A DNA stretch of 13,572 bases, from UHGV virus genome UHGV-1746862; one strand, written 5' to 3'. Position numbers and translations under genes: made by a program. Shown one piece after another: positions 1 to 12,470 of the stretch. This DNA comes from a virus. The number at the start of each line of letters is the position of its first letter. The stretch's first letter is position 1. The notes below the pieces were generated by a model, which saw nothing but the letters and a program-made list of their open reading frames with translations, searched no databases and had not been told where the DNA came from.

Positions 1-144
1 CTCTTACTCCCCCTCTCCCCAAAAGTCAAGAGAAAAATTTGTAGCGGATTGAAAAATAATTCTTGATTTGCGTTCTGTTTTGTGGTAGTCGCGCGCACCC
101 GTTTCATTACAATTTTTTTCAAAAAAATATTTTTAAAATTCCTA

Positions 145-223
145 TTGACTCTTTGAGTATGGTTATCTAGTATTTGCATCAGACGGGCAATCAAGCCCAC
201 TTCCTAAACTGGAGAATCTAAAA
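145..223 (+). promoter_or_regulatory. Putative sigma70-like promoter plus conserved translation-initiation region upstream of a micro-ORF
   Basis: TTGACT (145-150), 17-bp spacer, TAGTAT (168-173); A/T tract upstream (113-140); weak stem GGGC/GCCC 185-198; then CCTAAACTGGAGAATCTAAAAATG, the same initiation region as the downstream cassettes. Confidence 0.4.
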
Positions 224-298
224 ATGCTGTACAGTCGCGAATTGATGGTTACAACTAACGTTAACACAAAAGCAAAACGTTTTTACATGCAAATCTGA
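224..298 (+). CDS. Micro-ORF, 24 aa (MLYSRELMVTTNVNTKAKRFYMQI); hypothetical small peptide or decayed gene remnant
   Basis: ATG at 224 placed exactly as in the other cassette-driven genes (GGAG 9 nt upstream); ends TGA 296-298; below the ORF-track length cutoff. Confidence 0.25.
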   Translation: MLYSRELMVTTNVNTKAKRFYMQI

Positions 299-430
299 GG
301 CGTATGGTCCAGAATATCAGAAGCTGACTATTGCAACTATGTAGAAACAGCTATAAACTCTAATTGCTACCTTACAAGAAATACAAGAAAGTACATAAGA
401 CAGACAGCAGTTTATTACTACAATATCTAA

Positions 431-519
431 TAAAGTACTTTACAAGGGGCTTATAGTTCGATAAAGTAAGCCCCAGATAAAGAACTTTACCACTAAATCC
501 TAAATTGGAGAACTTAAAA
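431..519 (+). promoter_or_regulatory. Type A cassette: promoter-like TTTACA-N17-TAAAGT overlapping a GC-clamped stem-loop, plus conserved RBS
   Basis: TTTACA 439-444; TAAAGT 462-467; stem GGGGCTTA 446-453 / TAAGCCCC 467-474; GGAG 507-510; nearly identical to the copy at 2488-2576. Confidence 0.55.
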
Positions 520-813
520 ATGGCTATTATCAAAAACGTTGTAATTACTGCAAAGACTCGTGATGACGCTCGCGTTATGGCTAAAAAGTTATGCGGGAAA
601 GTGGTTGACAATGGAAAACAATCTGCTGTAAGGTGGGGCGTGAAGGTTGATAAACAGTTGAAGTTAAAAAATTCACCGATAAACCTTTTTACATGTGTAA
701 ACACTATCGGGAAGACAAATGTATACACGAAAAAGGCATACATTAGACGCGTAGCATTAACATCCCCCATTCGTACAATGAGAAGTTATGCAAAGCTGAA
801 AATTAACAAATAA
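520..813 (+). CDS. Hypothetical small basic protein (97 aa)
   Basis: ATG at 520 with GGAG at cassette spacing. The ORF track's 505 start is an in-frame TTG inside the RBS and is rejected. Stop TAA 811-813 immediately followed by the next cassette. Confidence 0.7.
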   Translation: MAIIKNVVITAKTRDDARVMAKKLCGKVVDNGKQSAVRWGVKVDKQLKLKNSPINLFTCVNTIGKTNVYTKKAYIRRVALTSPIRTMRSYAKLKINK

Positions 814-900
814 AGTACTTTACAGGGGGCTTAAAAGTTGATATCTTAAGCCCCAGATAAAGAGCTTTACCACTCAATCCTTAAACTAGGAGATTCAAAA
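811..900 (+). promoter_or_regulatory. Type A cassette (variant stem)
   Basis: TTTACA 819-824; TATCTT 842-847; stem GGGGCTTAA 826-834 / TTAAGCCCC 846-854; CTAGGAGATTCAAAA then ATG at 901. Confidence 0.55.
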
Positions 901-1413
901 ATGAAAACTGTAGACGCTACCTTTGAAGTTGTAAAAGAAAAATTCACCATTATTTACGAAGCTGTCAATTGTTATGAAGCAAGCCATAATCTTGATAATT
1001 GGAAGTTTACAGATGACCATCAAGGCGGCGTGACTGTTAAAAATCCTAACTGTCAGCGTAATGAATTTAAATATGCAATCCCTTTACATTACAGCCTTAA
1101 ACAGCTTTCAAGTGACTATGCAAAACAAGGCCGTGAGAATCCATCGAAAGAGGCTTACACGAGCTTACAGAAAGAACTAGAAAGAGATTTAGAGGCTTCA
1201 GAGTATAACCTTGCCGCGAAAGTTGTGGATGCAAACGGTAGCACGGTTTTAGAAAGTTTTTATCTTGGTTATGCTTTCGATTGGTGCTATCGTGACGGCG
1301 ATGATTTAGAGGATAGACTAAAAGAAGAGGTGAACAACGCAGACGCAGAATCTGAAGTATTAGAACGTTTGGAATCGTTGAAAGACTCAGTGATGAATAT
1401 CTTTAAGAACTAA
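901..1413 (+). CDS. Hypothetical acidic protein (170 aa)
   Basis: ORF with cassette RBS; stop TAA 1411-1413 abuts the next cassette; no recognisable motif. Confidence 0.75.
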   Translation: MKTVDATFEVVKEKFTIIYEAVNCYEASHNLDNWKFTDDHQGGVTVKNPNCQRNEFKYAIPLHYSLKQLSSDYAKQGRENPSKEAYTSLQKELERDLEASEYNLAAKVVDANGSTVLESFYLGYAFDWCYRDGDDLEDRLKEEVNNADAESEVLERLESLKDSVMNIFKN

Positions 1414-1505
1414 ATAGATTTCTTTACACGGGGTTATCAGACTGATAAGATAGCCCCAGATAAAGAGCTTTATTCAAATCAACCCTTAAACTAGGAGATT
1501 CTAAA
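1411..1505 (+). promoter_or_regulatory. Type A cassette (divergent stem with compensatory changes)
   Basis: TTTACA 1423-1428; TAAGAT 1446-1451; stem-loop GGGGTTATCAGACTGATAAGATAGCCCC 1430-1456; CTAGGAGATTCTAAA then ATG at 1506. Confidence 0.5.
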
Positions 1506-1802
1506 ATGAAATTATCAAATAAAGTCCGTGAAAATTTAAGCAAGTTACTTAATAAAATTGATTTCATTGAAACATCAAGGAATAGTCATGATGTTATGGA
1601 ATGGTTACACGGAAAAATCAAAGGCCGTCGTGTAGTGATTTGCTTATGGAACAGTTGCAGGGAGTATAAAAAACCTGTATTGCAAGTCAATATTTATGAT
1701 GATACTTTTAAAAGTCCTGTAAAGTCTAAAAGCGATTTATTAGAATCCTATGAGATAACTGTAAATGGCAAAGTATCACGTAAAGAGGAAACACCATGTT
1801 AA
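1506..1802 (+). CDS. Hypothetical protein (98 aa)
   Basis: ORF with cassette RBS; its stop TAA 1800-1802 overlaps the next start (ATGTTAA). Confidence 0.7.
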   Translation: MKLSNKVRENLSKLLNKIDFIETSRNSHDVMEWLHGKIKGRRVVICLWNSCREYKKPVLQVNIYDDTFKSPVKSKSDLLESYEITVNGKVSRKEETPC

Positions 1803-2128
1803 TGACTGGTATCACTGCAATCATTGTCATTTTCGCGCTATATAAGGCATATAAAGCCTATAATCTGGCAAGTAAGGCAATCACACAACAGGTTAATAAT
1901 AACCTTGTAATGAGCTTTCTAGAGCGTTTAAGTGATGAACAATTAAAACGGCTAGAAATGAGCTTTAGATTCAGGGCGAGAACTTATCAAATCAGTGACA
2001 TTTTCAAAGATAATTTTCAATTAGTCGATGATTATAATTCTCTGATAAATGCTTTAAATATTAGTGACTTAAAAGATTATCACGCTGTAATTGTTCAAGA
2101 ATTGAGCAAACGAAAACAAAACTGTTGA
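1796..2128 (+). CDS. Hypothetical small membrane-anchored protein (110 aa), one N-terminal hydrophobic helix
   Basis: Translationally coupled to the upstream gene; GAGGA 7 nt upstream of ATG 1796; residues 3-17 (MTGITAIIVIFALYK) hydrophobic. Confidence 0.65.
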   Translation: MLMTGITAIIVIFALYKAYKAYNLASKAITQQVNNNLVMSFLERLSDEQLKRLEMSFRFRARTYQISDIFKDNFQLVDDYNSLINALNISDLKDYHAVIVQELSKRKQNC

Positions 2129-2217
2129 CACTGATTTTTAGATAGATTAAATTACACATCAACGGGGAGGCAATAACCTCCCTACTAAATAAAGTCCTTA
2201 AACTAGGAGATTCAAAA
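2125..2217 (+). promoter_or_regulatory. Type B cassette: TTGACA-N17-TAAATT promoter, 5'-proximal GGGGAGG/CCTCCC stem-loop, conserved RBS
   Basis: TTGACA 2125-2130 overlaps the upstream stop TGA 2126-2128; TAAATT 2148-2153; stem 2164-2182; CTAGGAGATTCAAAA then ATG at 2218. Confidence 0.6.
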
Positions 2218-2490
2218 ATGTATACTACTAACAACGGTCGTACTTTAAATGTCACTCTACGTCACTATGTTGATGGTGTAATGTGCTTTGATGATTTACA
2301 AGCTGAGCAACACATCTTAGATTGGCAAGTAGCAGGACTCCAAAAAACTGCTACCGGATACGGGAAAAAGATTCCAACTAGCTGGAAAGTACACTATGAA
2401 GGCCGTTTGCGCAGAATTTATCAAGATGTGCAAAGCAATAGCGCATCGAGTTACATTATAGTAAAAGGCAAAAAACTGCATTTAATGTAA
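2218..2490 (+). CDS. Hypothetical protein (90 aa)
   Basis: ORF with cassette RBS; stop TAA 2488-2490 abuts a type A cassette. Confidence 0.7.
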   Translation: MYTTNNGRTLNVTLRHYVDGVMCFDDLQAEQHILDWQVAGLQKTATGYGKKIPTSWKVHYEGRLRRIYQDVQSNSASSYIIVKGKKLHLM

Positions 2491-2576
2491 AGTACTTTAC
2501 AAGGGGCTTATAGTTCGATAAAGTAAGCCCCAGATAAAGAGCTTTACCACTAAATCCTAAATTGGAGAACTTAAAA
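2488..2576 (+). promoter_or_regulatory. Type A cassette, near-identical copy of 431-519
   Basis: TTTACA 2496-2501; stem-loop 2503-2531; same RBS; about 1 mismatch per 100 nt against 431-519, identity extending into the first codons (ATGGCTATTA). Confidence 0.55.
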
Positions 2577-2981
2577 ATGGCTATTAATAACCGTGAATTA
2601 TCAATTTTAAAAGCACGTTTGACCGTTAACCGGATTAATGTTATCACGTCATCAGCACCAGATGAAACACTGCAAAACATTATTGGGAAGATTCAAAGTG
2701 TTATCTTAGACGTTGAAAGCGTAAAAAATTCATTGGCTGACGTTGCAGCAGGTATCACACTAGACGGTGCGCAATATGAAATGTCCGACATGTTAGGCAA
2801 ATCTAAGGTAATGAATAAAGAGTTAGATTTGAAAATGTTCCGATTTGCTGTTAAAGTGTGGCTATCTGTCGAGTATGATGCTAACTTTGCAATCGCTGAC
2901 TTTTTCGCCACTTGGTTGCAGCGTAATTTGACTAATCATGACTTCCGCGATATCTGGGATGCAATTTATGCAGAACTCTAA
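2577..2981 (+). CDS. Hypothetical protein (134 aa)
   Basis: ATG at 2577 with cassette RBS; the track's 2562 start is an in-frame TTG inside the RBS and is rejected. Confidence 0.7.
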   Translation: MAINNRELSILKARLTVNRINVITSSAPDETLQNIIGKIQSVILDVESVKNSLADVAAGITLDGAQYEMSDMLGKSKVMNKELDLKMFRFAVKVWLSVEYDANFAIADFFATWLQRNLTNHDFRDIWDAIYAEL

Positions 2982-2990
2982 AAAATTTTG

Positions 2991-3085
2991 TTGACACTGG
3001 TTTTTAGATAGATTAAATTACACATCAACGGGGAGGGAATGACCTTCCCCACTAAGTAAAGTCCTTAAACTAGGAGATTCAAAAA
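2991..3085 (+). promoter_or_regulatory. Type B cassette
   Basis: TTGACA 2991-2996; TAAATT 3014-3019; stem GGGGAGGG 3030-3037 / CCTTCCCC 3043-3050; CTAGGAGATTCAAAAA then ATG at 3086. Confidence 0.6.
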
Positions 3086-3289
3086 ATGGCTATTATTAAT
3101 GATTTAACCATTGAAACTACACACATCAAAGATATCAAAGTTGGCGATATAGTCCTTTCCCACGGCGTAGAAAAAACTGTCACTGCAAAGGATATCAAAG
3201 AGGATTCTTTCATGGGTAGGACTCTCTTCGGTGATTCTTATTGCTTAGGCTATCTTGCAGTTTTAAAAGTTGTCAAAAATAACAAATAA
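3086..3289 (+). CDS. Hypothetical protein (67 aa)
   Basis: ORF with cassette RBS; starts MAII like the gene at 520. Confidence 0.65.
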   Translation: MAIINDLTIETTHIKDIKVGDIVLSHGVEKTVTAKDIKEDSFMGRTLFGDSYCLGYLAVLKVVKNNK

Positions 3290-3375
3290 AGTACTTTACA
3301 AGGGGCTTAAAAGTTGATAACTTAAGCCCCAGATAAAGAGCTTTACCACTAAATCCTAAACTGGAGATTCTAAAA
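3287..3375 (+). promoter_or_regulatory. Type A cassette (stem variant as in 811-900)
   Basis: TTTACA 3295-3300; stem-loop 3302-3330; CTGGAGATTCTAAAA then ATG at 3376. Confidence 0.55.
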
Positions 3376-3624
3376 ATGATGAACTACTTTAACATTCCCG
3401 ATACCTGTAGATTATTGACACAAGAAGAAAATTTGGGTAAACCTTTCATTTACCACATGCCAGATAACACGGCAAAAACTTATAGTTACAATGTTAACCG
3501 TTTCACCGCATACGCTGCAAAGAACGGCTATAGGTTGGTTACTCAAAAAGTAATGCTGGTTACAACTGCTGGCGAGATTCCTACAGTTGCAGTCAAACTA
3601 GTTTTCTCAAAGAAAGTTAAATAA
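3376..3624 (+). CDS. Hypothetical protein (82 aa)
   Basis: ORF with cassette RBS; stop TAA 3622-3624 abuts the next cassette. Confidence 0.65.
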   Translation: MMNYFNIPDTCRLLTQEENLGKPFIYHMPDNTAKTYSYNVNRFTAYAAKNGYRLVTQKVMLVTTAGEIPTVAVKLVFSKKVK

Positions 3625-3709
3625 AGCACTTTACAAGGGGCTTATAGTTCGATAAAGTAAGCCCCAGATAAAGAGCTTTACCACTAAATCCTAAACTGGA
3701 GATTCAAAA
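3622..3709 (+). promoter_or_regulatory. Type A cassette
   Basis: TTTACA 3630-3635; stem-loop 3637-3665; CTGGAGATTCAAAA then ATG at 3710. Confidence 0.55.
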
Positions 3710-4252
3710 ATGAAATGCTATCACGGAACTACTCAAGAAAATTTCCTCAACCTGATTAATAACGGTGATAAACCATCAGGCGCATGGGATTGTTCGGATA
3801 TGGACGGCAATTTTTACGTGTATCCAGAAAATAAAATCTATGGCGACGATGATGAAGAGATAACATCGGAAGGTATTCAGCAAGCTCTAGGCAATGCCAC
3901 TATCACCGCAGCTTTTCAGATGAAGACTCAAAATATTGTTATCTTAGAACTCGATATTCCAGAGGATGAGCTAAACGATGATTATTCTTGTGATAATATG
4001 TCGAGTGTAGCAAGTTTTACAGAGTACTTTGATGTAAATTGGATTAAAAAGGTCTATACAACAGAGTTTAATGCTATGTATTCACCTTTTTGTCTTCCTT
4101 CATTGGATAACCCAAATTTAAACTATCTTGATGAGTCTCTGGAGCTTCTTGCTAAAAGTGTTCAACAGTCGGACAGTATTCAGGTTTTTTGTGACATCAT
4201 GGATACACTGACAGGAAACATTGCAGAAGAGGATTTAAAGAGCTTTTTCTAA
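3710..4252 (+). CDS. Hypothetical strongly acidic protein (180 aa)
   Basis: ORF with cassette RBS; many Asp/Glu runs (DDDEE, PEDELNDDY); followed by a terminator-like hairpin. Confidence 0.75.
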   Translation: MKCYHGTTQENFLNLINNGDKPSGAWDCSDMDGNFYVYPENKIYGDDDEEITSEGIQQALGNATITAAFQMKTQNIVILELDIPEDELNDDYSCDNMSSVASFTEYFDVNWIKKVYTTEFNAMYSPFCLPSLDNPNLNYLDESLELLAKSVQQSDSIQVFCDIMDTLTGNIAEEDLKSFF

Positions 4253-4284
4253 AAACCTATGCAATCACCTTATAAACACTAATC

Positions 4285-4304
4285 AGCCCCTTGTAGGGGC
4301 TTTT
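4285..4304 (+). terminator. Putative intrinsic terminator (short T-tail)
   Basis: AGCCCC 4285-4290, loop TTGTA, GGGGCT 4296-4301, then TTTT. Confidence 0.45.
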
Positions 4305-4318
4305 AGAGGGCTTAAATC

Positions 4319-4552
4319 ATGCTTACAACCATTTACCTCATCCTTTCCATCTGTAATGGTCATTCATGTGATTTTAAAGGGCTTGAAGAGTTTACAGGAA
4401 GTAAAGAAAATGCTATTCAAGTTTGCCAGATAGCAAGACAAGACTATCCCGCTAGTGATGATATACAATGTTACTTTAAGACAGAAGATGAAGACGGTAT
4501 CTATTTTGACAGCGTAGATGGTCAGTATGAAATTATCATTGAAAAAGACTAG
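4319..4552 (+). CDS. Hypothetical small protein (77 aa) with hydrophobic, Cys-containing N-terminus
   Basis: ATG at 4319 with weak AGAGGG upstream; the only gene of the array without a cassette; N-terminus MLTTIYLILSICNGHSC. Confidence 0.5.
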   Translation: MLTTIYLILSICNGHSCDFKGLEEFTGSKENAIQVCQIARQDYPASDDIQCYFKTEDEDGIYFDSVDGQYEIIIEKD

Positions 4553-4643
4553 ACAAGCCTGATAAAAATCTGTAAATTGTCAATCAACGGGGAGGGAATG
4601 ACCTTCCCCACTAAGTACAATCCTTAAACTAGGAGATTCAAAA
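4550..4643 (+). promoter_or_regulatory. Type B cassette
   Basis: TAGACA 4550-4555 overlaps stop TAG 4550-4552; TAAATT 4573-4578; stem 4589-4609; CTAGGAGATTCAAAA then ATG at 4644. Confidence 0.55.
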
Positions 4644-4985
4644 ATGGCTTATGTAACCGTAATTACCGATAAAGAAAATTCATCTTGGTCAACTCAAGTA
4701 AGTGATAAGATGTCACCTATGCAGTGCCTAAAATACTTTGAACAGTGGAACAAAGGCGAGGACACAAGCCCCTTTCAAGTGATGCAGATTATCCATGTAG
4801 ATAACGAAGGGAATAAAACGGTTTTAAATAGTGAGTACTACGCAAGCCTTTTTGAAACGAGAAGTAAAACAATGAAGCTTTTACGTGAATCCGGTTATGC
4901 CCATATCGCCGCGTTAATCTGGGATGACCTGCTAAAAAACCAACGTATCAGCTATGTAAAACCTGAAAAAATATTCATCAGTTAA
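4644..4985 (+). CDS. Hypothetical protein (113 aa)
   Basis: ORF with cassette RBS. Confidence 0.7.
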   Translation: MAYVTVITDKENSSWSTQVSDKMSPMQCLKYFEQWNKGEDTSPFQVMQIIHVDNEGNKTVLNSEYYASLFETRSKTMKLLRESGYAHIAALIWDDLLKNQRISYVKPEKIFIS

Positions 4986-5018
4986 TCAATAACTTACAAA
5001 AAACTTTTAAAAAAAATG

Positions 5019-5047
5019 TTGACAATACCCCTTGACATTGGTAACTT
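5019..5047 (+). promoter_or_regulatory. Additional promoter-like element with tandem TTGACA hexamers and upstream A-tract
   Basis: A-run 5004-5016; TTGACA 5019-5024 and again 5032-5037; TAACTT 5042-5047 at 17-bp spacing from the first hexamer. Confidence 0.35.
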
Positions 5048-5115
5048 TGTTCGAGGGGGTTTATCTAAAAGGGATTCACTTAAAAGATTCTTTATAGATA
5101 AGCTCAAAAAATTAC

Positions 5116-5208
5116 TTGCAATCAGCTATCAAAACAAGTAAATTACTAATCAACGGGGAGGGAATGACCTTCCCCACTAAGTAAAATCCTTAAACTAGGA
5201 GAGTCAAA
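5116..5208 (+). promoter_or_regulatory. Type B cassette
   Basis: TTGCAA 5116-5121; TAAATT 5139-5144; stem GGGGAGGG 5155-5162 / CCTTCCCC 5168-5175; CTAGGAGAGTCAAA then ATG at 5209. Confidence 0.55.
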
Positions 5209-5739
5209 ATGAACAAGTTTAAAGCTATCAACTTCATTCGTTCAAATGCTGTAATGTCTAAGCCTGTAAAAGATACATATGAATTTCGTTGTAATGGGGT
5301 ACACTTTGCAACCATCACTAAGTCAGAAAACGGGGCTTATTATGTACATCGTCGTAATGTTGCAACCGTTGTAGTCTCTCACTTTATGCAAGCTGTAGCG
5401 GAATTATTACCGTTATTCTTAGAGATTTACTTAGATGAGTGTAAAAACGTTCACAACCACGTTAAAAACCTTTTAAACGGTTATAAAATGGCTTATGAAC
5501 GTTCTATCAAGTCACTAAACAAGTTTTACAATGCACCTGCAAATACTGTTTCAATGGCTTATGATGTAAACGGTGAGTTAGTTAGTCTCTTTAAAGTGGA
5601 AGAAATTAAACTGTATAATCTACGTCCTAGTGGTTACTCTAAGACTCTTGGTGAAGGTTTAACGTTCAATATCAAGAACTTAGAAAAAACTTTAAAAGAT
5701 ATTGAAAAAGATATTGACGAGACACTTAAAAGTCTGTAA
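5209..5739 (+). CDS. Hypothetical protein (176 aa)
   Basis: ORF with cassette RBS; its last codons and stop contain the promoter of the next cassette. Confidence 0.75.
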   Translation: MNKFKAINFIRSNAVMSKPVKDTYEFRCNGVHFATITKSENGAYYVHRRNVATVVVSHFMQAVAELLPLFLEIYLDECKNVHNHVKNLLNGYKMAYERSIKSLNKFYNAPANTVSMAYDVNGELVSLFKVEEIKLYNLRPSGYSKTLGEGLTFNIKNLEKTLKDIEKDIDETLKSL

Positions 5740-5806
5740 ATTGTCAATCAACGGGGAGGCGATAACCTCCCCACTAAATAAAACCCTTAAACTAGGAGAT
5801 TCAAAA
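5714..5806 (+). promoter_or_regulatory. Type B cassette, promoter embedded in the 3' end of the upstream gene
   Basis: TTGACG 5714-5719; TAAATT 5737-5742 overlaps stop TAA 5737-5739; stem GGGGAGG 5753-5759 / CCTCCCC 5766-5772; CTAGGAGATTCAAAA then ATG at 5807. Confidence 0.55.
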
Positions 5807-6055
5807 ATGGCAACTATCCGCGCTACTGTTAACGAGTTCGGTTTTTCCTCTCTGGATGTTAAATTTGACATTGCAGGCACTGATAACGCCTTTGAAATGG
5901 TGAAATGTCTTATCAGTCAGACCATCAAAGATTATAATCCTTCGGATGAGTTCTGGGAGGAAACAAAACAAGAAGTTCTCAAGGATGGTTATACTTATCA
6001 CTATTGGGGAGAAAAAATCGTCTCCCTGTACTACAACAAACAAGATTATAACTAA
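5807..6055 (+). CDS. Hypothetical protein (82 aa)
   Basis: ATG at 5807 with cassette RBS; the track's 5702 start is an in-frame extension running through the cassette and is rejected. Confidence 0.7.
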   Translation: MATIRATVNEFGFSSLDVKFDIAGTDNAFEMVKCLISQTIKDYNPSDEFWEETKQEVLKDGYTYHYWGEKIVSLYYNKQDYN

Positions 6056-6065
6056 TCGACGCAGC

Positions 6066-6117
6066 GGGGCTAAATAGCCCCAGATACCTGAACAGCCCCT
6101 TAAAATGGGGCTTTTTT
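6066..6117 (+). terminator. Two consecutive GC stem-loops, the second a canonical intrinsic terminator closing the rightward array
   Basis: GGGGCT-AAAT-AGCCCC 6066-6081; AGCCCC-TTAAAAT-GGGGCT 6094-6112 followed by TTTTT 6113-6117. Confidence 0.6.
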
Positions 6118-6560
6118 ACGTCTATGTAATAGCCTCTATTCAATCCTTTTCCTTTCCTTTCCAGAATCTATCCCACTGATTCAATAGAATCTTATCAGAC
6201 CTTAAAAGCAATAACTCTATAGTCTACTCTATAACCTCTTATCAAATCAACTTAAATAAAAGCCAATAACCCCAGAAAGGGGATGGCCCATTTAAACGCT
6301 CTATAAAGCTCTATAACAGCCTTATCAACCTAACTTAAGGGATTGCATTACCTCACCCTAAAAAGCCCTTTATAAAGCTTCCCAGAGACTTAAAAGAATC
6401 TTATAAGGGTGTAAGCTTTATCATCTCATTAGTATTCTTGTGAATATCTAAACAACCCCTTGATAGTCACTAAAAAGTATGTTATAGGGGCTTTAAAGTT
6501 ACTTTGAAGTAGCTTAAAAGTTACGTAAAAGAGGCTATAAAGTTACGTAAATGCTAGCCC

Positions 6561-6661
6561 CCTTAACATTCTCTTAACAATTTCTTAACAATCCCTACAT
6601 AGTTATGCTTTTAAGGCACTTGTTAGCAACTTGTTAGTCCCTTGTTAAATCTCTGTTAAGA
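6561..6661. repeat. Head-to-head sub-array: three CTTAACA sites, then four TGTTA(G/A) sites in the opposite orientation, each set at exact 11-bp spacing
   Basis: TAACA cores start at 6564, 6575, 6586; TGTTA cores start at 6621, 6632, 6643, 6654. Confidence 0.7.
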
Positions 6662-6863
6662 CCACGTAAAAGCCTTGTAAGAGTCTTTGACATAGCCTTA
6701 AAAGCTCCTGTAAAGCCCTATAAAGAGCTATCTGTACAGTTGGGGGATAGATACTAGGAAGAGACTTAAAAGAGCTTACAAAGAGCTATAGAGAGCTTTT
6801 AAGAGGGCTATTTAGAGAATCACTAAGAGAGAAAGGGAACGATAAGACCAGAGATAGTGACCA

Positions 6864-7140
6864 TGTTAATAGCTTGTTAAAAAGATTAAACACTTGTTAG
6901 AAACTTGTTAATTATCTTAACAAAATAACTCTTTAAAATTAACTTGTTAGCTCTTGTTAATCATCTGTTAAGACTCTGTAAAGACTATTCAGCACTTGTT
7001 AGAAAACTGTTACAGCCTTGTTAGTTCTGTTAAGAAACTGTTAAGACCTTTGAAGAGTTGTTAAGAAGGTGTTAGAACTGTTAAGAGATTGTTAAGGATA
7101 TTTTAAAATTTTGCAAAGTACTTGTAAGGGAGCTGTTAAG
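6864..7140 (+). repeat. Tandem array of about 17 TGTTA(A)G-family sites, mostly phased at 9-11 bp
   Basis: TGTTA cores start at 6864, 6875, 6895, 6906, 6945, 6955, 6966, 6997, 7008, 7019, 7028, 7039, 7059, 7070, 7079, 7090, 7134; one inverted copy (CTTAACA) at 6916-6922. Confidence 0.7.
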
Positions 7141-7429
7141 GGCTACCAAGCAGATATACATCCTAATCAGATATTTTTGAGTTCCTTCAAAGACCCTAAA
7201 AAATGACTTGACAGTCCTATTTTATAAAAATTTTAAGATTCTGAATAATTACCTATACAGCCTTTTAAAAATACAGGTAATAACAGGCTTATAAGATACC
7301 TTGTTAGTACCGTGTTAGACCTTGTGAGATAAGGCCTGTAAAGATATTCCTGTTAAGTTTATTAAAACAGTCTATATAGAGGCTTAGTAATACCTAGTGA
7401 ACACCTATAGAGAGTATCATAGCTGACAT

Positions 7430-7635
7430 AGAGATTAAGAGGTGTATAGGAGCTTCTAAGAAGGTGTAGAGGGATGGTTAAGGTGATTGTATAGGTTGTT
7501 AAGAAGGCTTGTTAGAGGGCTTGTTAGAAGGGTTATACAGAGGGGCTATTAAGACCACTAGATAGTTACTAAGATACTATATAGTACTATATAACTATAT
7601 AGAGAGTAAGATTAAGAAGGTTGTTAAGAAGGATA
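7430..7635 (+). repeat. Cluster of longer motif variants ((C)TTGTTA(A)GAAGG, AAGGTGTAGAGG)
   Basis: TTGTTAAGAAGG at 7496-7507 and 7621-7632; CTTGTTAGAGGG at 7508-7519; CTTGTTAGAAGGG at 7520-7532; related GGTGTATAGG / AAGGTGTAGAGGG at 7440-7473. Confidence 0.55.
7575..7602. repeat. TATA-rich palindromic cluster
   Basis: Perfect 12-bp palindrome TACTATATAGTA at 7575-7586; three CTATATA(G) copies at 7577, 7587 and 7595. Confidence 0.6.
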
Positions 7636-7690
7636 GATATTTTGTTCACATATGATGGTGACCCAGAGGTTGGGACAACCGATAAAATTT

Positions 7691-7723
7691 TATAAAAGTA
7701 AAAAGCCCCCAATTAAGGAGGCT
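7691..7723 (-). terminator. Putative intrinsic terminator closing the leftward gene cluster
   Basis: On the minus strand, AGCCUCC-UUAAUU-GGGGGCU (7 bp stem with one G-U pair) followed by UUUUACUUUUAUA, just past stop TAA 7735-7737. Confidence 0.55.
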
Positions 7724-7734
7724 CTTAAGATATT

Positions 7735-8358
7735 TTAAATCAGTGTTTCCAGAACTGTTTTTAATGATGACTTGGTTGTCTGATAAAAATGAGTAAATCC
7801 ATTATTGTTATCGAATATCTGCATCATAACAGCATCTCCCTTGATTGGGTACACTCGGATATCATAGTGAAAACCATTAAAGACACAAGAGCCATTACAG
7901 AATGCACTAAAGTCATCCACTGAGATATACTCTTCATGCCCTGTGATTTTTATACAAACACCTTTACTCGGTCTCTTAGGGTTGATATCTTCCATCACAG
8001 ACATACTCTGCCCACCAAGAGATACCATAGTGACCACTTTACGGTTCTTCTGTTTAAAGTACATCTTAACTTTCTGTAAAGTGTCTTCATAGAACGGGTA
8101 AGACCTTTCTACAAAGATTCCTTCAAGTGGCTCTTTACCATTTTCAACTTCTCTGTTATGCCGTACTGCAAAGATAATTTGTTCGAACCAGTCAAGATTT
8201 TCTTCGGAGAGTGCTTCTCGAACATCACTCCAGTCAAGTACTAGGTAGTTACCTTCAACTTCTTTTAAGTTATCTTTTTCCATAGATATCACACCATTAT
8301 CGTAAAACTTGATATTCTGGTACTGCGAATTTATTACTATTGTTCTTGATGAGGTCAT
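7735..8358 (-). CDS. Hypothetical protein (207 aa; possibly starts at the internal ATG 8283, giving 182 aa)
   Basis: Long ORF; the first 62 nt overlap the upstream gene in another frame; no clear SD before ATG 8358. Confidence 0.65.
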   Translation of the reverse strand: MTSSRTIVINSQYQNIKFYDNGVISMEKDNLKEVEGNYLVLDWSDVREALSEENLDWFEQIIFAVRHNREVENGKEPLEGIFVERSYPFYEDTLQKVKMYFKQKNRKVVTMVSLGGQSMSVMEDINPKRPSKGVCIKITGHEEYISVDDFSAFCNGSCVFNGFHYDIRVYPIKGDAVMMQIFDNNNGFTHFYQTTKSSLKTVLETLI

Positions 8359-8761
8359 CCTCTGAAACTAAAAATGTAATACCACATAAGTGTCTGTAAC
8401 GACTATCATACTCGAATATCTTAAACAGATATTTACCATCATGATAAACCTGTTGCACTTCACCTTCTGCAACAATCTCGCCTGTAATAAAATTTTTTAG
8501 TTTATACACATTACCAACCTTAGGTACTGTTTTCATCTCAGGCTCTTTTAGTGCTACACCTATTTTTACATCACCGAGTAAATGAGAACTCTCAAAAGCT
8601 ACGTGTTTCATATAGGCTTCTGAGCATTCCCAAATAAAACAATGTACAAGAACCTTAGCAGCATGTCTTGAGCAGTTCAACTTATCACAAATTTCTGTGT
8701 ACATCTCATCTTTAGTAGAATTGTCAAGCATTGCTCTTTGCACTACTTCTTTAATTTTCAT
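8297..8761 (-). CDS. Hypothetical protein (154 aa)
   Basis: ORF in the leftward cluster, overlapping the upstream gene by 11 nt. Confidence 0.7.
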   Translation of the reverse strand: MKIKEVVQRAMLDNSTKDEMYTEICDKLNCSRHAAKVLVHCFIWECSEAYMKHVAFESSHLLGDVKIGVALKEPEMKTVPKVGNVYKLKNFITGEIVAEGEVQQVYHDGKYLFKIFEYDSRYRHLCGITFLVSEDDLIKNNSNKFAVPEYQVLR

Positions 8762-9173
8762 AAGCTCTCCGAATAACCCTATTAAGCATCTCTAAAGTCA
8801 GCTTTCCAGATTCTAAATGTGGCATGATGAGTTTTAAAGCTTTTTCAACATCATTCACAACATCTATTATACCTTCTTCATAGGCTTCTACGAGGATATC
8901 TTTTACACCGATATAGCCTTCATTGATAATGATTTGCATATCAAAATCTTTTGATTGCTTGTTTAACTTACCTCTCCAATACCCATCAGCATTAAAAGAT
9001 ATCACTTCACACTCTTTAAAATCCATATCATCTGCATTGAATGGAGTAATTATTGTGCATTGGATTGGGTACTCTACACCAGTGGTGTCAACATCAAAAA
9101 CCTTCACAGAAGTGAGTGGTTTCTTTGTTTTAGAGCAGTAAACTGTCAATCTTTTACCAATAAGCTCTTTCAT
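8751..9173 (-). CDS. Hypothetical protein (140 aa)
   Basis: ORF with GAAGG-type RBS upstream of ATG 9173. Confidence 0.7.
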   Translation of the reverse strand: MKELIGKRLTVYCSKTKKPLTSVKVFDVDTTGVEYPIQCTIITPFNADDMDFKECEVISFNADGYWRGKLNKQSKDFDMQIIINEGYIGVKDILVEAYEEGIIDVVNDVEKALKLIMPHLESGKLTLEMLNRVIRRAYEN

Positions 9174-9226
9174 TTCGCTACCTTCTAAGTTTCTACAAAG
9201 GGGCTATCAAGTAACCCCTCAAGCTA

Positions 9227-9451
9227 CTACTCAGACTTTTCAGTCTTCTTATCGGATTTCTTACTAGTCTTCTTCTCAGCTTTCTGTTCAGGCTCCTTCT
9301 CAGAAGTTGCCTTGATAACCATATCAAGAAGCTCTGATAAGTCACTCTTCAGCAAAGTAACAGGCTGCTCGTTGTAGAAGTTTTTGTCAAGATAAACTTT
9401 GAACTCTTCTATAGAAGGAAATCCAAAAATTGGTACAGGTGTCTTAATCAT
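9227..9451 (-). CDS. Hypothetical small protein (74 aa) with Lys/Glu-rich C-terminal tail
   Basis: ORF with GGAGAG 8 nt upstream of ATG 9451; C-terminus EKEPEQKAEKKTSKKSDKKTEKSE. Confidence 0.6.
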   Translation of the reverse strand: MIKTPVPIFGFPSIEEFKVYLDKNFYNEQPVTLLKSDLSELLDMVIKATSEKEPEQKAEKKTSKKSDKKTEKSE

Positions 9452-9527
9452 TACTTAGTCTCTCCATAGGCATCTTTTAAGATTGCCTTGTTAATCATTT
9501 CAGCGATTGCAAAACGAACACATACAG

Positions 9528-10061
9528 CTATAATTGTAGGTTGCATTCTCTACTTACCTCTTCAAGTTTAACCTCAGAATCCTTAAGTCGTTTCTTATGA
9601 ACTCTGAACCTCATTAGTGAGATGATGATACCAGCTAAAGGAACAGCATACAAGTACCAAACATCATGTGCCTTTGCAGTAATCTGTGTAATGGTCAAGT
9701 CTTGAGCTATGTAGCTGATTGCTGATACGGCTAGTAATGTTGCTAAGAAGAAAACCAGTATCATAACAATATTCAGACAACCTCTGGCATGGTATTCATG
9801 CTTAATGCACTTATTCTTCTCTTCAACAACCCTGTTGTAGTCATTTGTAAAGTCTCTGTAGAAAGCTTTTAAGTATTCTTGAGTGTAGCCTTCAAAGCAA
9901 CCTGTGCCGTACCAATAATCACCACCAAAATGTGCTATGATACCTGTATCCCCATTTGGTTTGGTTACTCTTAGTGAAGTATGATGACCAGTCTTCTGAT
10001 AATCTATCTTGTATCTTTCTTCGTAAATCATTTCCCAACCCCTCTCAATCGTTTGTTCCAC
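9528..10061 (-). CDS. Hypothetical membrane protein (177 aa), soluble N-terminal part then two predicted TM helices and a charged C-terminus
   Basis: Hydrophobic segments IVMILVFFLATLLAVSAISYI and VWYLYAVPLAGIIISLM; alternative coupled start at 10031 (ATGA overlap with the upstream stop). Confidence 0.7.
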   Translation of the reverse strand: MEQTIERGWEMIYEERYKIDYQKTGHHTSLRVTKPNGDTGIIAHFGGDYWYGTGCFEGYTQEYLKAFYRDFTNDYNRVVEEKNKCIKHEYHARGCLNIVMILVFFLATLLAVSAISYIAQDLTITQITAKAHDVWYLYAVPLAGIIISLMRFRVHKKRLKDSEVKLEEVSRECNLQL

Positions 10062-10246
10062 TCAAGGTCAACAAGTCTTTGCAGGACTTTCCCTCTAGGT
10101 GTTACACCTTTTAAATCTGCATCGTAGCAACGGTAAAAGTCACCTTCAGCGTGTTTACCGTAGCATTTTCTGATATTCTGGCTCCTACGATACTGCTCTA
10201 ACAGGGAGAGTCTGTAGTAATCTTCAACTGTAGTTAACTTTTTCAT
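10028..10246 (-). CDS. Hypothetical small basic protein (72 aa)
   Basis: ORF with ATGA overlap to the upstream gene (10243-10246). Confidence 0.55.
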   Translation of the reverse strand: MKKLTTVEDYYRLSLLEQYRRSQNIRKCYGKHAEGDFYRCYDADLKGVTPRGKVLQRLVDLEWNKRLRGVGK

Positions 10247-10788
10247 TCTTTCACCATAGCGTTTCTGAACTGGCGTTGTGTTTCTCTTGTAATTTCGTTT
10301 GGAGTAAACCCTGCTTTTAGCATATCTCTGAAAAGAACTTCTAAATGGTTCCTCTCAATGATGTAAATAGCATTCTGAATAGCTGTTTTGCGCTCCTTCA
10401 GGTCACTACTAATCTCTTCGCACTTACTGGTAAGTTCTGTATCAACTTTCTTATAGACTGGCATAACATGTGCGTAGCAACCTTTATTAGTCTCCATGAA
10501 AAATTTAAAAGACTCTTCAGAGTCCTTTAGAGCAATCCCTATAAAGTTTTTGTAAGCACCTGTGAAAGATAAGGAATCAATCTCAGCAGTTGAGTATACA
10601 GTTCCTGCACACAGTCTTGCAGAAGTACTGAATGTGTGGTTTGGTGTTGTGTCAAAGTCTAAGTTCTTCAGTGGTCGGAAATAAACTGTACCATTGTGTG
10701 AGATGTGTGTTACAACAGCCTCAACACTCTTTGAAGGATTCTGTTTAACATACAAAATAATTTTATCGTGTTCTTTCACTTTAGCCAT
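10243..10788 (-). CDS. Hypothetical protein (181 aa)
   Basis: ORF with GGAGAG RBS upstream of ATG 10788. Confidence 0.7.
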   Translation of the reverse strand: MAKVKEHDKIILYVKQNPSKSVEAVVTHISHNGTVYFRPLKNLDFDTTPNHTFSTSARLCAGTVYSTAEIDSLSFTGAYKNFIGIALKDSEESFKFFMETNKGCYAHVMPVYKKVDTELTSKCEEISSDLKERKTAIQNAIYIIERNHLEVLFRDMLKAGFTPNEITRETQRQFRNAMVKE

Positions 10789-10802
10789 ATCTACTCTCCA
10801 GA

Positions 10803-10835
10803 AACTAAAAAGGGAACTACCTCTCGATAGCTCCC
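10803..10835 (-). terminator. Putative internal intrinsic terminator in the leftward cluster
   Basis: On the minus strand, GGGAGCU-loop-AGUUCCC (10812-10835) followed by UUUUUAG (10805-10811), which runs directly into the RBS of the gene starting at 10788. Confidence 0.45.
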
Positions 10836-10860
10836 ATCATAATCAATATTGTATACTCGG

Positions 10861-11442
10861 TCAAGAGTATTTTTTAGGCAGCAATGCACTGCGCTTGTTA
10901 CTCTCTTCACTCAATAGTGCAATGAAATCATCACTTTTACCTTTCCACGGGCTGAATGAAGGGATATGTTCGCGGATAGCCTCAATCACTGTTTTAAGTG
11001 CTGTGTTCTTCATCCACCAATCAGAATCTGCTGATGCTACCACGTAGTATCCACCGTCATCAGTTAAAATTGGCTCTGAAATACATGGTGAAATCAAAGT
11101 GGTGATGATTGAACCGTTGTTCATGTAGTATGTGCGCTTCATAACCTTTTCAAGAAGCTTGTGAAGGTCACCAAACAATGTTACAAGTTCTTTATGGTCA
11201 ATATCTTTTTCGAGACTAGCTCGATACTTCAAAAGTGCAGCATCAACTTCTCTGTCATTAAACTTGAAGTACTGGACTTCATCAACAAGGCAGACACTAA
11301 TGTTATTAACATTCATAGTCAGCTTGCAAACTTTTGCAGGAGAGTTGATATTTGGTTGAAAAAGTGCAATACACCCTTCAATATTTCCAAAATGTTGTAC
11401 CAGTGTTACTTGTGGAGTGATATTCTGTTGCTCTTCGGACAT
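10861..11442 (-). CDS. Hypothetical protein (193 aa)
   Basis: ORF; start overlaps the upstream stop (TAATG, shared nt 11442). Confidence 0.7.
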   Translation of the reverse strand: MSEEQQNITPQVTLVQHFGNIEGCIALFQPNINSPAKVCKLTMNVNNISVCLVDEVQYFKFNDREVDAALLKYRASLEKDIDHKELVTLFGDLHKLLEKVMKRTYYMNNGSIITTLISPCISEPILTDDGGYYVVASADSDWWMKNTALKTVIEAIREHIPSFSPWKGKSDDFIALLSEESNKRSALLPKKYS

Positions 11443-11786
11443 TACAGTTTCCTCATTAAATACTTTTTAAGTTGTGTGTTAGGTTTCTCAAAAACTTCTA
11501 TAGAAGATATCTTAACAGATTCACCACGCATACCAGTATGTTTGAATATGTAATACTCTAACATCCCTATGTACTTTGCTGGTAAGTCATGCTTGACATA
11601 CACCGTCACAGAATCTTCAAATTCAACGACCTTCGTACCATCTTTGTAGTTAAACTCTTTAGGATGGTTGTAGTTGTCTATGTCATACATTAAAAAGAGT
11701 CTTTTACGTTGTAAATCAAGCTTATTTGTTAAAGACTCTTTGATATCTGAGAAGTTTTTGTACACTGTGACATGGAGCTTACTCAT
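11442..11786 (-). CDS. Hypothetical protein (114 aa)
   Basis: ORF; 8-nt overlap with the upstream gene. Confidence 0.65.
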   Translation of the reverse strand: MSKLHVTVYKNFSDIKESLTNKLDLQRKRLFLMYDIDNYNHPKEFNYKDGTKVVEFEDSVTVYVKHDLPAKYIGMLEYYIFKHTGMRGESVKISSIEVFEKPNTQLKKYLMRKL

Positions 11787-12072
11787 CGTTAAACTCTCTG
11801 ACGAAGAAATAGTTGACTTTGTTATTACCTACCATAAGGTCAAAGCAGGTATTTTCAAAAGGTTTGTTGCAGGCATCATATGAAGTGTATGTATCAGCTA
11901 CTTGCTTAGTAGTGAGCTTTTTACTTGATGGATTTAAGAGGCCACCATACAGTTTCTTGATAGCCTCTTCTACAACAGACCAGATGATTTCGTCAGTAAT
12001 CTCTTCGTACAGGTCAAGTTCACGCTCTAGTGAGAAGTCACAAATAGGGAAAATAACCTGCACTTTACTCAT
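11779..12072 (-). CDS. Hypothetical protein (97 aa)
   Basis: ORF; TAATG overlap with the upstream gene at 12072. Confidence 0.65.
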   Translation of the reverse strand: MSKVQVIFPICDFSLERELDLYEEITDEIIWSVVEEAIKKLYGGLLNPSSKKLTTKQVADTYTSYDACNKPFENTCFDLMVGNNKVNYFFVREFNDE

Positions 12073-12470
12073 TAACGAATCACCTGTGAGACTTGAATTG
12101 CTTCAGTTACTGACAAGTCACCTACTTTCTCTTCTTTGATAAAAGTGAAGGTGAGTTCAACAGGTTCTTGCTCTTCTTGCTCAACTGGAACACCATTAAG
12201 CTCATCAAAGATTGATTGGGTTGTCCAGTCTTCACCACCATCTGGGTAGTGGATTGCGTAAAGAGGGAACTCTATATCAAACCAACCAAATACAGGACAA
12301 CCATCTTCATCATCTCGTACTCGATGAAGTGTGCTTCCAGACCCTGTAAACTGAAGGAATAAATCTCCGTTGCACTTGTATATTACTGCATCGGCAAAAC
12401 CTATATCTTCTCGACCATCATGACCAAACGTGTCAACTTTTACTTGGATATCTCTAACATCTTTATTCAT
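12072..12470 (-). CDS. Hypothetical strongly acidic protein (132 aa)
   Basis: ORF; 8-nt overlap with the upstream gene; Asp/Glu-rich (RDDEDG, EQEEQEP). Confidence 0.7.
   Translation of the reverse strand: MNKDVRDIQVKVDTFGHDGREDIGFADAVIYKCNGDLFLQFTGSGSTLHRVRDDEDGCPVFGWFDIEFPLYAIHYPDGGEDWTTQSIFDELNGVPVEQEEQEPVELTFTFIKEEKVGDLSVTEAIQVSQVIR

Follow-up and report, generated by a model that had tools for sequence, protein, structure and literature searches.

The window analysed here, a stretch of 13,572 nucleotides of the virus genome UHGV-1746862, comes from a Felixounavirus with 94–97% identity to the E. coli phages ECML-1, LMP25, and KhF1. Between its small early genes lies a repeated spacer of 90 bases, termed type A, of which the window holds six copies on the + strand (the original prediction had listed three). 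Together with a sister class, type B, 11 cassettes are present within 6 kb, and the genes that they flank all match PHROGs of unknown function. Cassette 1 (428–522) illustrates the layout of type A: a flanking box TAAAGTACTTTA (431–442) is followed by a -35 hexamer, TTTACA (439–444), a hairpin (446–474) that contains the -10 hexamer TAAAGT (462–467), a predicted transcription start at A475, a second flanking box TAAAGAACTTTA (478–489), a Shine-Dalgarno sequence (SD; 507–510), and the ATG of the next gene (520). The TAA stop codon lies inside AATAAAGTAC, 5–8 nt ahead of the -35, and GGAG is found 9–10 nt 5' of the ATG in six of six window copies.

Cassette 2 (808–903) has its upstream stop codon TAA at 811–813, the -35 at 819–824, the hairpin at 826–854, the -10 TATCTT at 842–847 with a TG before it, a predicted start at A855, the SD at 889–892, and the ATG at 901. 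In cassette 3 (1411–1508), the corresponding elements are the stop codon TAA (1411–1413), the -35 (1423–1428), a hairpin of the 28-nt class, GGGGTTATC/GATAGCCCC (1430–1457), the -10 TAAGAT (1446–1451), the predicted start A1458, the SD (1494–1497), and the ATG (1506). The coordinates first proposed for hairpins 1 and 2 are correct, while the third hairpin ends at 1457 and not at 1456. Cassette 4 (2488–2579; -35 2496–2501, -10 2519–2524, ATG 2577) carries a hairpin (2503–2531) of the same sequence as in cassette 1. The remaining copies are cassette 5 (3287–3378; -35 3295–3300, hairpin 3302–3330, -10 TAACTT 3318–3323, ATG 3376) and cassette 6 (3622–3712; -35 3630–3635, hairpin 3637–3665, -10 TAAAGT 3653–3658, ATG 3710). 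Type B, represented on the + strand at 2125–2220 and by further copies starting near 2991, 4550, 5130, and 5714, consists of TTGACA, 17 bp, TAAATT, and then a hairpin (GGGGAGG..CCTCCCT) that begins approximately 3 nt inside the predicted transcript. The two types are interchangeable upstream of orthologous genes.

For comparative purposes, 189 type A copies, equivalent to 71 distinct cores, were collected from approximately 35 genomes of the Ounavirinae genera Felixounavirus, Mooglevirus, and Kolesnikvirus. TTTACA is invariant among them, also when it is left out of the copy search; owing to the quasi-palindromic flanks, the hairpin-only anchored search behind this result gave matches on the reverse strand as well, and its matches were used solely for the invariance of TTTACA. 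A TAnnnT hexamer follows 17 or 18 bp after TTTACA in 70 of 71 variants, and TAAAGT, TATCTT, and TAAGAT occur 17 bp downstream as first described. Within the hexamer T1, A2, and T6 are conserved and positions 3–5 are free (approximately 0.1–0.25 bits), a G is found at -14 in 84% of the variants, and positions -15/-14 often carry TG or G. As a unit, the GATA said to be kept in or near the loop shows no conservation: TA (positions 1–2 of the -10) alone is invariant, preceded by G (-2) in 84% and A (-1) in 63%. The slot before orthologous genes is occupied by type A, type B, or a hairpin-less sigma-70 promoter, and in other phages such genes are headed by clear TTGACA-17-TAAATT promoters. In Felix O1, which is without an RNA polymerase of its own, genes 16 and 20 lie downstream of a 57-bp type A repeat, belong to the 5-minute expression class, and peak at that time.

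A promoter overlaid on the same bases as the hairpin, as the original prediction had it, is supported at the sequence level by a sigma-70 signature, with an invariant TTTACA and retention of T1, A2, and T6. From this signature we infer that type A is active as a promoter and that transcription starts at an A, the first base past the hairpin. Because this predicted start lies directly 3' of the hairpin, the hairpin should form only in read-through RNA from upstream. The literature searched yielded no mapped transcript starts or ends for Felix O1-like phages.

The stem of the hairpin (GGGG..CCCC) starts 1 nt past the -35, encloses the -10, and stops at the predicted start. Each type A copy in the window forms a 9-bp stem with a loop of 10–11 nt, at a fold energy of approximately -14 kcal/mol and with z-scores of -2.9 to -4.7 relative to dinucleotide shuffles. 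This also applies to copy 3, for which a bulged TTATCAG/CTGATAA pairing had been drawn; that pairing is at odds with the family and has not the lowest energy, the minimum-energy fold being a plain 9-bp stem, GGGGUUAUC/GAUAGCCCC, with a 10-nt loop. The stems of copies 1 and 2 differ by a single pair (U.G to A-U), and the changes in copy 3 are C-G to U.G, U-A to A-U, A-U to U-A, and U.G to C-G. The T6 of the -10 and the bases that follow it sit within the stem, so that promoter and structure are not separable as causes of the conservation of these bases.

The claim that the three hairpins differ in sequence and yet keep their pairing proved solid on the 71 variants. In a structure-blind MAFFT alignment of these variants, paired cells amount to 95.0% compared to 88.6% in shuffles, and the covariation score is 0.204 compared to 0.101 in shuffles (0 of 500 as high) and to at most 0.071 with slid partners; the counts behind these figures overstate independent events, since many copies are orthologues or recombinants of each other. 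An alignment anchored from the flanks gave the pairs position by position. Two-sided changes are seen at stem position 3 (GC 59, UA 9), position 7 (UA 56, AU 12), position 8 (AU 52, UA 10), and position 9 (AU 23, UA 13, CG 11, UG 10, GC 5), and position 5 forms a C-G/U.G/U-A series (CG 31, UG 35, UA 1). Such compensatory change, above controls that keep relatedness, indicates at the level of sequence that base pairing of the + strand is under selection, as the original prediction had expected an alignment of related genomes to reveal.

Between variants that are single-step neighbors, 35 changes affect the loop and 11 the stem. The latter comprise nine changes from Watson-Crick to G.U, one that creates A.C, and one from G.U to a mismatch, and among the non-Watson-Crick cells of all variants G.U outnumbers A.C by 51 to 1. 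Since this tolerance of G.U is strand-asymmetric, the folding molecule would be the + strand RNA; the excess favors a hairpin of mRNA sense over a cruciform or a protein-binding palindrome. Thus, where the element had been described as an RNA hairpin or a DNA cruciform, the first half of the alternative is favored over the second (nine G.U-compatible changes vs. one A.C). Rfam covariance models, searched against the whole window with E up to 1, gave no family match, the sole match being mir-980 on the minus strand (E = 0.13; 24 bits vs. a gathering score of 47), which is sub-threshold and attributable to chance.

Taken together, type A is probably a dual-coded intergenic cassette that combines a host sigma-70 early promoter, acting as DNA, with an RNA hairpin formed by upstream transcripts. 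At the DNA level, TTTACA, a spacer of 17–18 bp, and TAnnnT, often with an extended TG, would serve as the promoter of the next small gene. In read-through RNA, the same bases would fold into a GC-clamped 9-bp stem-loop, which may cap a longer interrupted helix starting at the upstream stop codon. The likeliest task of the hairpin would be to label the 3' end of the upstream message, shield it, and reduce read-through into the following unit, so that each module of one or two genes could be transcriptionally self-contained. The role of 3'-end stabilizer or leaky terminator given in the original prediction is plausible and agrees with measurements on the analogous stem-loops of T4-like phages discussed below (PMC2839356), and the hairpin may act as an attenuator, processing site, or stabilizer rather than as an efficient intrinsic terminator. 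Some orthologous slots contain a promoter without the GC hairpin, so that the hairpin is dispensable in places.

It is possible, though somewhat doubtful, that the functional unit is instead a three-tier helix of approximately 20 bp that is cut by a double-strand-specific RNase such as the host RNase III. In this fold, AAAGU of the stop-codon box would pair with GCUUU at +10 to +14 (tier one), CUUUA of the -35 with UAAAG at +4 to +8 (tier two), and the GC stem would form tier three; after such a cut, the GC hairpin would cap the upstream message, and the 5' end of the downstream message would lie near the primary start. The fold was predicted by RNAalifold on 156 cassettes, and the prediction extends to all genera; for every window copy, as well as for Erwinia-phage and Mooglevirus copies, it has the lowest energy, at -21 to -25 kcal/mol with z-scores of -4 to -6. 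The outer helix is 96.8% paired, and its changes include G-C to U-A (14 sequences), U-A to A-U (4), and U.G to U-A or C-G (15), but most of the double changes among them come from a few orthologous sites and could result from whole-cassette descent. The divergent copy 3 retains the outer helix in another register. Pairing with the fixed -35 would account for the invariance of AGATAAAG; however, a single quasi-palindrome (TAAAGnnCTTTAC) is also repeated directly in the two flanks, which may be conserved for another cause, and boxes 2 and 3 are invariant and thus provide no covariation for their pairing. Because the outer helix starts at the stop codon, it would be melted by the terminating ribosome.

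A broader version of the same idea, in which type A is a single overlapping code whose helix is cleaved by a double-strand RNase and which, as a portable unit, shuffles genes, appears unlikely as a whole. Here, a hairpin would cap the 3' end of the cleaved upstream message, the 5' end of the downstream message would not differ between initiation in the cassette and processing of a longer RNA, and the portable cassette would drive gene shuffling across the three Ounavirinae genera. A precedent for the cleavage step is found in T7, whose early mRNA is cut by RNase III at intercistronic sites. The T7 hairpins share with type A an interrupted helix of about two turns between early cistrons (here a predicted fold), from which a 3' hairpin protecting the upstream message could result. 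They differ in that, to our knowledge, none of the T7 intercistronic RNase III sites doubles as a promoter, and cleavage of type A is a prediction.

The hairpin could also be an efficient intrinsic terminator of upstream transcripts, which is how GenBank annotators regard the hairpins of type B (in ASO1A and KhF1, these are annotated as terminators through WebGeSTer and TransTerm), although for type A we consider this quite unlikely. The stem is GC-rich and lies directly past the stop codon, a feature shared with canonical Rho-independent terminators, and the PeSL211/210 stem-loop, which belongs to the promoter-early stem-loop (PeSL) cassettes discussed below, lowered lacZ about as far as rrnB T1 even though it is without a clean U-tract. 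Type A departs from the canonical terminators in the U-tract: the 3' flank of the stem is AGAUAAAG in all copies, a U-run is present in 0 of 189, and a consensus terminator scan called none of these hairpins. Canonical U-tract terminators do occur elsewhere in the window, near 4285–4305 and 6094–6118. The missing U-tract after the stem thus disfavors efficient intrinsic termination; moreover, in type B a terminator placed approximately 30 nt downstream of the cassette's promoter would cut short the very transcript made from it. A terminator on the minus strand was rejected, given a weak T-rich tail, no minus-strand genes in the stretch, and the G.U asymmetry, which points to the + strand.

A very unlikely alternative is that type A contains no promoter, with TTTACA and the loop TA kept for RNA structure or as a protein-binding loop and the genes expressed by read-through from type B. 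In the extended fold, UAAAG is the pairing partner of TTTACA, the T6 of the hexamer is located in the stem, and TAAAGT, TATCTT, and TAAGAT are weak -10 sequences that match the consensus at no more than four of six positions. Against this, conserved T1, A2, and T6 around free positions 3–5, with frequent TG at -15/-14, form a sigma-70 signature that no obvious need of a loop would explain, other phages fill the type A slot with clear sigma-70 promoters, Felix O1 genes 16 and 20 are in the earliest expression class, and PeSLs of like design are active promoters. A middle promoter of the T4 MotA type was considered as well, as GTGCTTTA and GAGCTTTA resemble a MotA box. It was rejected on spacing (the upstream box lies 19 nt and the downstream box 10 to 14 nt from TAnnnT) and because the start would land inside the SD.

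Least probable of all is an inverted repeat that acts on DNA, either by forming a cruciform or by binding a dimeric regulator that controls the embedded promoter: the repeat does overlap the promoter spacer and the -10, and its flanks are palindromic 12-mers, but the U.G found at position 5 in more than half of the variants, and as the commonest pair at the base of the outer helix, is an A.C mismatch on the other strand or in a dyad, pairing on the + strand is preserved 9 to 1 among substitutions, the stem sequence shifts by compensation in a way that a sequence-specific protein site would not tolerate, and a loop of 10–13 nt disfavors cruciform extrusion.

Where relatives have gained or lost genes, the breaks lie at the cassettes, an observation that is new here. 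Of 137 homology breakpoints, 105 fall inside cassettes, compared to 20% expected. Three clean cassette-bounded deletions were counted: L047, L039, and L009 each lack some of the window genes and have one cassette at the junction. In the dual-coded cassette favored above, the conserved cassettes would act as homology patches through which recombination could add, remove, or swap the small genes that they flank.

The type A element is real and largely familiar in kind, and parts of it have been noted before. The genome paper of Felix O1 listed direct repeats of 57 bp and 39 bp, located between genes 15/16, 19/20, 18/19, and 20/21 (PMC3185647). The 57-bp repeat, CTTTACATGGGGCTTAAAAGTCTGTAAAGTAAGCCCCAGATAAAGAGCTTTACCACT, is a type A core and the 39-bp repeat corresponds to the type B promoter; that paper reported the repeats only, without mention of a promoter, hairpin, or covariation, and called secondary promoters downstream of terminators unknown (PMC3185647). 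In the Citrobacter phage Mordin, a start-associated 26-bp repeat, CCAACAATCCTAAACTGGAGAATCTA, was described (PMC4611695), which corresponds to the ribosome-binding part at the 3' end of these cassettes, the promoter and hairpin being outside the scope of that paper. Database annotation can be corrected, in that type A promoters are unannotated and type B hairpins directly past promoters are labelled terminators, and exact positions can now be named for transcript-end mapping. Felix O1-like phages serve in typing, biocontrol, and therapy. The cassette also shows how one stretch of DNA can meet two constraints, a promoter and an RNA fold, with strand asymmetry revealing which molecule folds.

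The closest known counterparts are the PeSL cassettes of the T4-like phages RB49, phi1, T4/PST, and KVP40/nt-1 (PMC2839356; PMC4122927). In RB49 and phi1, the PeSL promoters are active and the stem-loop lowered reporter expression (PMC2839356). PeSL and type A cassettes have the same order of elements (the stop codon of the upstream gene within A-rich sequence, -35 and -10 hexamers of sigma-70 type, a stem-loop, an SD, and ATG) and a stem of a G-run and a C-run with G.T pairs, placed between the -35 and -10 or over the -10. Both occur in many copies among small genes of unknown function and bound gene gains and losses between relatives, and the PeSL subclasses, defined by the position of the stem-loop, have their counterpart here in type A vs. 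type B. On the other hand, blastn with type A and type B queries retrieved Ounavirinae records only, with no detectable homology to the PeSLs of RB49 and phi1, and the resemblance of RB49 intergenic regions to type A is limited to short functional motifs. Judged by sequence, type A is an analogue and not a homologue of the RB49/phi1 PeSLs. The two also differ in host phage (Ounavirinae vs. Straboviridae) and in extent: the type A stem-loop of 28–30 nt covers the spacer, -10, and discriminator and ends at the predicted start, whereas the hairpin of RB49 measures 17 nt and occupies the spacer. Activities were measured for the PeSLs and are predictions for type A, which may also fold on into a three-tier helix with the -35 and the stop codon. 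A cassette of promoter plus stem-loop, hitherto known from T4-like phages only, is thus present in an unrelated subfamily, and such self-contained expression modules may offer virulent phages a general means of keeping and exchanging accessory genes.

By megablast, the window falls in the genus Felixounavirus (Felix O1-like myoviruses), matching 259 phage records, and positions 1-6500 are 94-97% identical to the E. coli phages ECML-1, LMP25, and KhF1. Positions 1-6060 hold an array of small genes, all on the + strand. Every one of them matches PHROG families to which no function is assigned, and almost all have a copy of one of two repeated cassettes, type A or type B, in front of them. The - strand carries an endolysin ORF (12913-13377; PHROG 7, E = 1e-56), and for the remaining - strand ORFs (7735 to 12861), the matching PHROGs have no known function. 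Between the convergent + strand array and the - strand genes lies ~1.6 kb without ORFs (6100-7700, 34% GC), in which TGTTA(A/G) is found in 27 + strand copies, many at 10-11 bp spacing (e.g., 6621/6632/6643/6654 and 7059/7070/7079/7090); these resemble a helically phased, iteron-like array and could mark a candidate origin or protein-binding region.

The type A cassette consists, in order, of a stop codon, TTTACA, a GGGG..CCCC hairpin, AGATAAAGAGCTTTACC, a Shine-Dalgarno (SD) sequence, and ATG. Six type A hairpins are present on the + strand: 446-474, 826-854, 1430-1457, 2503-2531, 3302-3330, and 3637-3665, the last three being additional to those originally predicted. The first two lie exactly where they had been placed; the third starts at 1430 as proposed and ends one base beyond the proposed 1456, and rather than adopting the bulged structure first drawn, it folds as GGGGUUAUC/GAUAGCCCC. 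Each hairpin has a 9-bp stem, a loop of 10-11 nt, and a free energy of about -14 kcal/mol (z-scores -2.9 to -4.7 against dinucleotide shuffles). On either side of the hairpin stands the quasi-palindrome TAAAGnnCTTTAC (431-442 and 478-489 in the first copy, with the other type A copies arranged alike), and its upstream occurrence takes in both the -35 and the stop codon; among Kolesnikvirus copies, the 12-nt core of both flanks is identical (TAAAGAGCTTTA). Type B cassettes (2125-2217, 2991-3086, 4550-4644, 5130-5208, and 5714-5806) contain TTGACA, 17 bp, TAAATT, and then the hairpin GGGGAGG..CCTCCCC, which begins ~3 nt into the transcript predicted from this clear sigma-70 promoter, a typical position for a 5' stabiliser. 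A third hairpin type, GGGGTTACGGTTATGAGACTATAACCCC, occurs in Erwinia phages (phiEa104, 8706-8760 and 11147-11200), following TTTACA or TTGCAA without a AGATAAAG box or a well-spaced -10.

Because three copies are too few to show compensation, relatives were collected. An IMG/VR pattern scan yielded 46 loci on 28 contigs (almost all 82-94 kb long and of Felix O1 type), to which the genomes of ASO1A, KhF1, Mordin (Mooglevirus), and four Kolesnikvirus (Erwinia phages phiEa104, Rouille, and Coenus, and Salmonella phage ST-3) were added, for 189 type A copies and 71 distinct cores. In a structure-blind MAFFT alignment, 95.0% of stem cells are paired, vs. 88.6% after shuffling, and the stem covariation score of 0.204 (0.101 shuffled) was reached by 0/500 shuffles; sliding the 3' partners, a control that preserves relatedness, gives at most 0.071. 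When the arms are anchored from the conserved flanks, position 3 of the stem is G-C in 59 and U-A in 9 (the Kolesnikvirus copies, GGTG..CACC); position 5 is C-G (31), U.G (35), or U-A (1); position 7 is U-A (56) or A-U (12); position 8 is A-U (52), U-A (10), or G.U (3); and position 9 takes six forms (A-U 23, U-A 13, C-G 11, U.G 10, G-C 5, and G.U 2). Variants one base apart differ 35 times in the loop and 11 times in the stem, where nine changes turn a Watson-Crick pair into G.U, one creates A.C, and one turns G.U into a mismatch. Since alignment controls, pair types, and single-step neighbours agree, the selection on secondary structure that had been claimed from three copies is real.

The original prediction allowed either an RNA hairpin or a DNA cruciform. 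Each G.U pair is an A.C mismatch on the opposite strand or in a dyad-symmetric DNA site, which places the constraint on the + strand in single-stranded form. Stem cells contain 51 G.U vs. 1 A.C, and the single-step changes lean likewise (9 to 1), which suits an mRNA-sense RNA far more than either a cruciform or a protein site of palindromic sequence.

RNAalifold on 156 cassettes predicts a larger, three-tier structure: AAAGU, which shares bases with the TAA stop of the upstream gene, pairs with GCUUU at +10 to +14 from the predicted start, the -35 CUUUA pairs with UAAAG at +4 to +8, and the GC stem forms the top tier. This is the minimum-energy fold in every copy in the window and in the Erwinia-phage and Mooglevirus copies (-21 to -25 kcal/mol, z-scores -4 to -6). 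When all three tiers are scored together over 149 distinct cassettes, pairing is 96.3% vs. 92.8% after shuffling, with covariation of 0.120 vs. 0.064 shuffled (0/500) and at most 0.043 slid; the -35/+4 tier is invariant, hence offers no covariation by which to judge its pairing, and each flank is at the same time a direct copy of a single quasi-palindrome. Outer-helix changes include G-C to U-A (14 sequences), U-A to A-U (4), and U.G to U-A or C-G (15), the double changes coming mostly from a few orthologous sites. The modelled three-tier fold is best regarded as suggestive rather than established.

The same DNA carries a promoter signature. Every + strand copy keeps TTTACA unchanged, also in a search anchored on the hairpin only, and the predicted 17-bp step from it to TAAAGT, TATCTT, or TAAGAT is present. 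Among the 71 variants, the spacing to TAnnnT is 17 bp in 61 and 18 bp in 9, of which eight have a one-base insertion in the loop and one carries an additional G after TTTACA and ahead of the stem; the sole exception to TAnnnT, TAAAGC, belongs to a variant that also breaks a stem pair. Positions 1, 2, and 6 of the hexamer are fixed, and positions 3-5 hold 0.09, 0.10, and 0.25 bits; G occupies -14 in 84% of variants and TG -15/-14 in 63%. Judged by sequence, this is the usual sigma-70 -10/extended -10 pattern. The GATA thought to be retained in or near the loop is not conserved as a unit; only its TA is fixed. Assuming a 6-7 nt discriminator, transcription is predicted to start at the A directly after the stem (475, 855, 1458, 2532, 3331, and 3666), so that the cassette's own transcript would lack the hairpin and only upstream-derived RNA would contain it. 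In the Felix O1 genome paper, the type A core appears, uninterpreted, as a direct repeat of 57 bp that precedes genes 16 and 20; its RT-PCR table assigns both genes to the 5-minute class, and its authors state that the phage lacks an RNA polymerase of its own.

Efficient intrinsic termination at the type A hairpin is unlikely, because no copy has a U-tract after the stem and the terminator scan of the window left these hairpins uncalled, reporting only two canonical terminators, near 4285-4305 and 6094-6118. The hairpin precedes the start site in type A and follows it in type B, yet the classes are interchangeable: ahead of the same orthologous genes, some phages have type A and others have type B or a hairpin-less TTGCAA-17-TATAGT promoter. 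Common to both classes is that read-through RNA has a hairpin between its cistrons. The type A hairpin thus most likely acts on read-through RNA, where its role may be that of a stabiliser or barrier at the 3' end or of a processing site, with weak attenuation also possible. Overall, the type A element is real and under dual constraint; the original prediction was right in substance, is now sharpened on the strand and corrected on the third hairpin and GATA, and its proposed function is putative.

The cassettes may also serve as recombination linkers. Between the window and related loci, 105 of 137 homology breakpoints (events that are not independent) fall in cassettes, against 20% expected from cassette length. 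Three relatives lack the gene at 520-813 (L047), the gene at 3376-3624 (L039), and 3091-4573 (L009), each with a single cassette at the junction. In Mordin, 4420-4545 holds a tandem pair of type A cores with no intervening gene (...AGATAAAGAGCTTTACCAACTTTACATGGGG...), which looks like a scar of cassette-to-cassette recombination.

No Rfam family matches the window. In GenBank records, type A is unannotated, and type B hairpins, immediately behind the promoter, carry the label of a Rho-independent "terminator", probably in error. In the Mordin genome note, a 26-bp repeat adjoining the ribosome-binding site is the only part mentioned. Every cassette has a conserved CCTAAACTGGAGA or CCTTAAACTAGGAGA at its 3' end (e.g., window 500-519), and phiEa104 has a T4 RegB-like endoribonuclease annotated at 2049-2561. 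As T4 RegB cleaves at GGAG in early SD regions, these 3' ends could, by analogy, be candidate RegB-type shut-off sites.

The promoter-early stem-loop (PeSL) cassettes of the T4-like phages RB49 and phi1 are described as having the anatomy of type A: a stop codon embedded in A-rich sequence, then sigma-70 boxes, a poly-G/poly-C stem-loop that usually lies between the -35 and -10 or over the -10, an SD, and ATG (PMC2839356, PMC4122927). PeSL promoters are very strong, their stem-loop lowers lacZ about as much as rrnB T1, and recombination between PeSLs shuffles ORFans (PMC2839356, PMC4122927); the promoter and stem-loop activities were measured for PeSLs, whereas they are predicted here from sequence. 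On inspection, a typical RB49 PeSL reads TTGACA-GGGGATCACGTATCCCC-TATACT. When RB49 intergenic regions are set beside type B of the window, PeSLs and Felix O1-type cassettes prove to have short motifs in common, ACACA(C)ATCAA downstream of the -10 and, around the ribosome-binding site, CTTAAAC(N)GGAGAATCAAAAATG, which could reflect convergence on strong E. coli signals or old phage exchange. BLAST detects no similarity of type A or type B to RB49 PeSLs, so the Felix O1-type elements, which belong to a different subfamily, are analogues of PeSLs rather than homologues, and type A is best classed with the PeSL kind as such an analogue.
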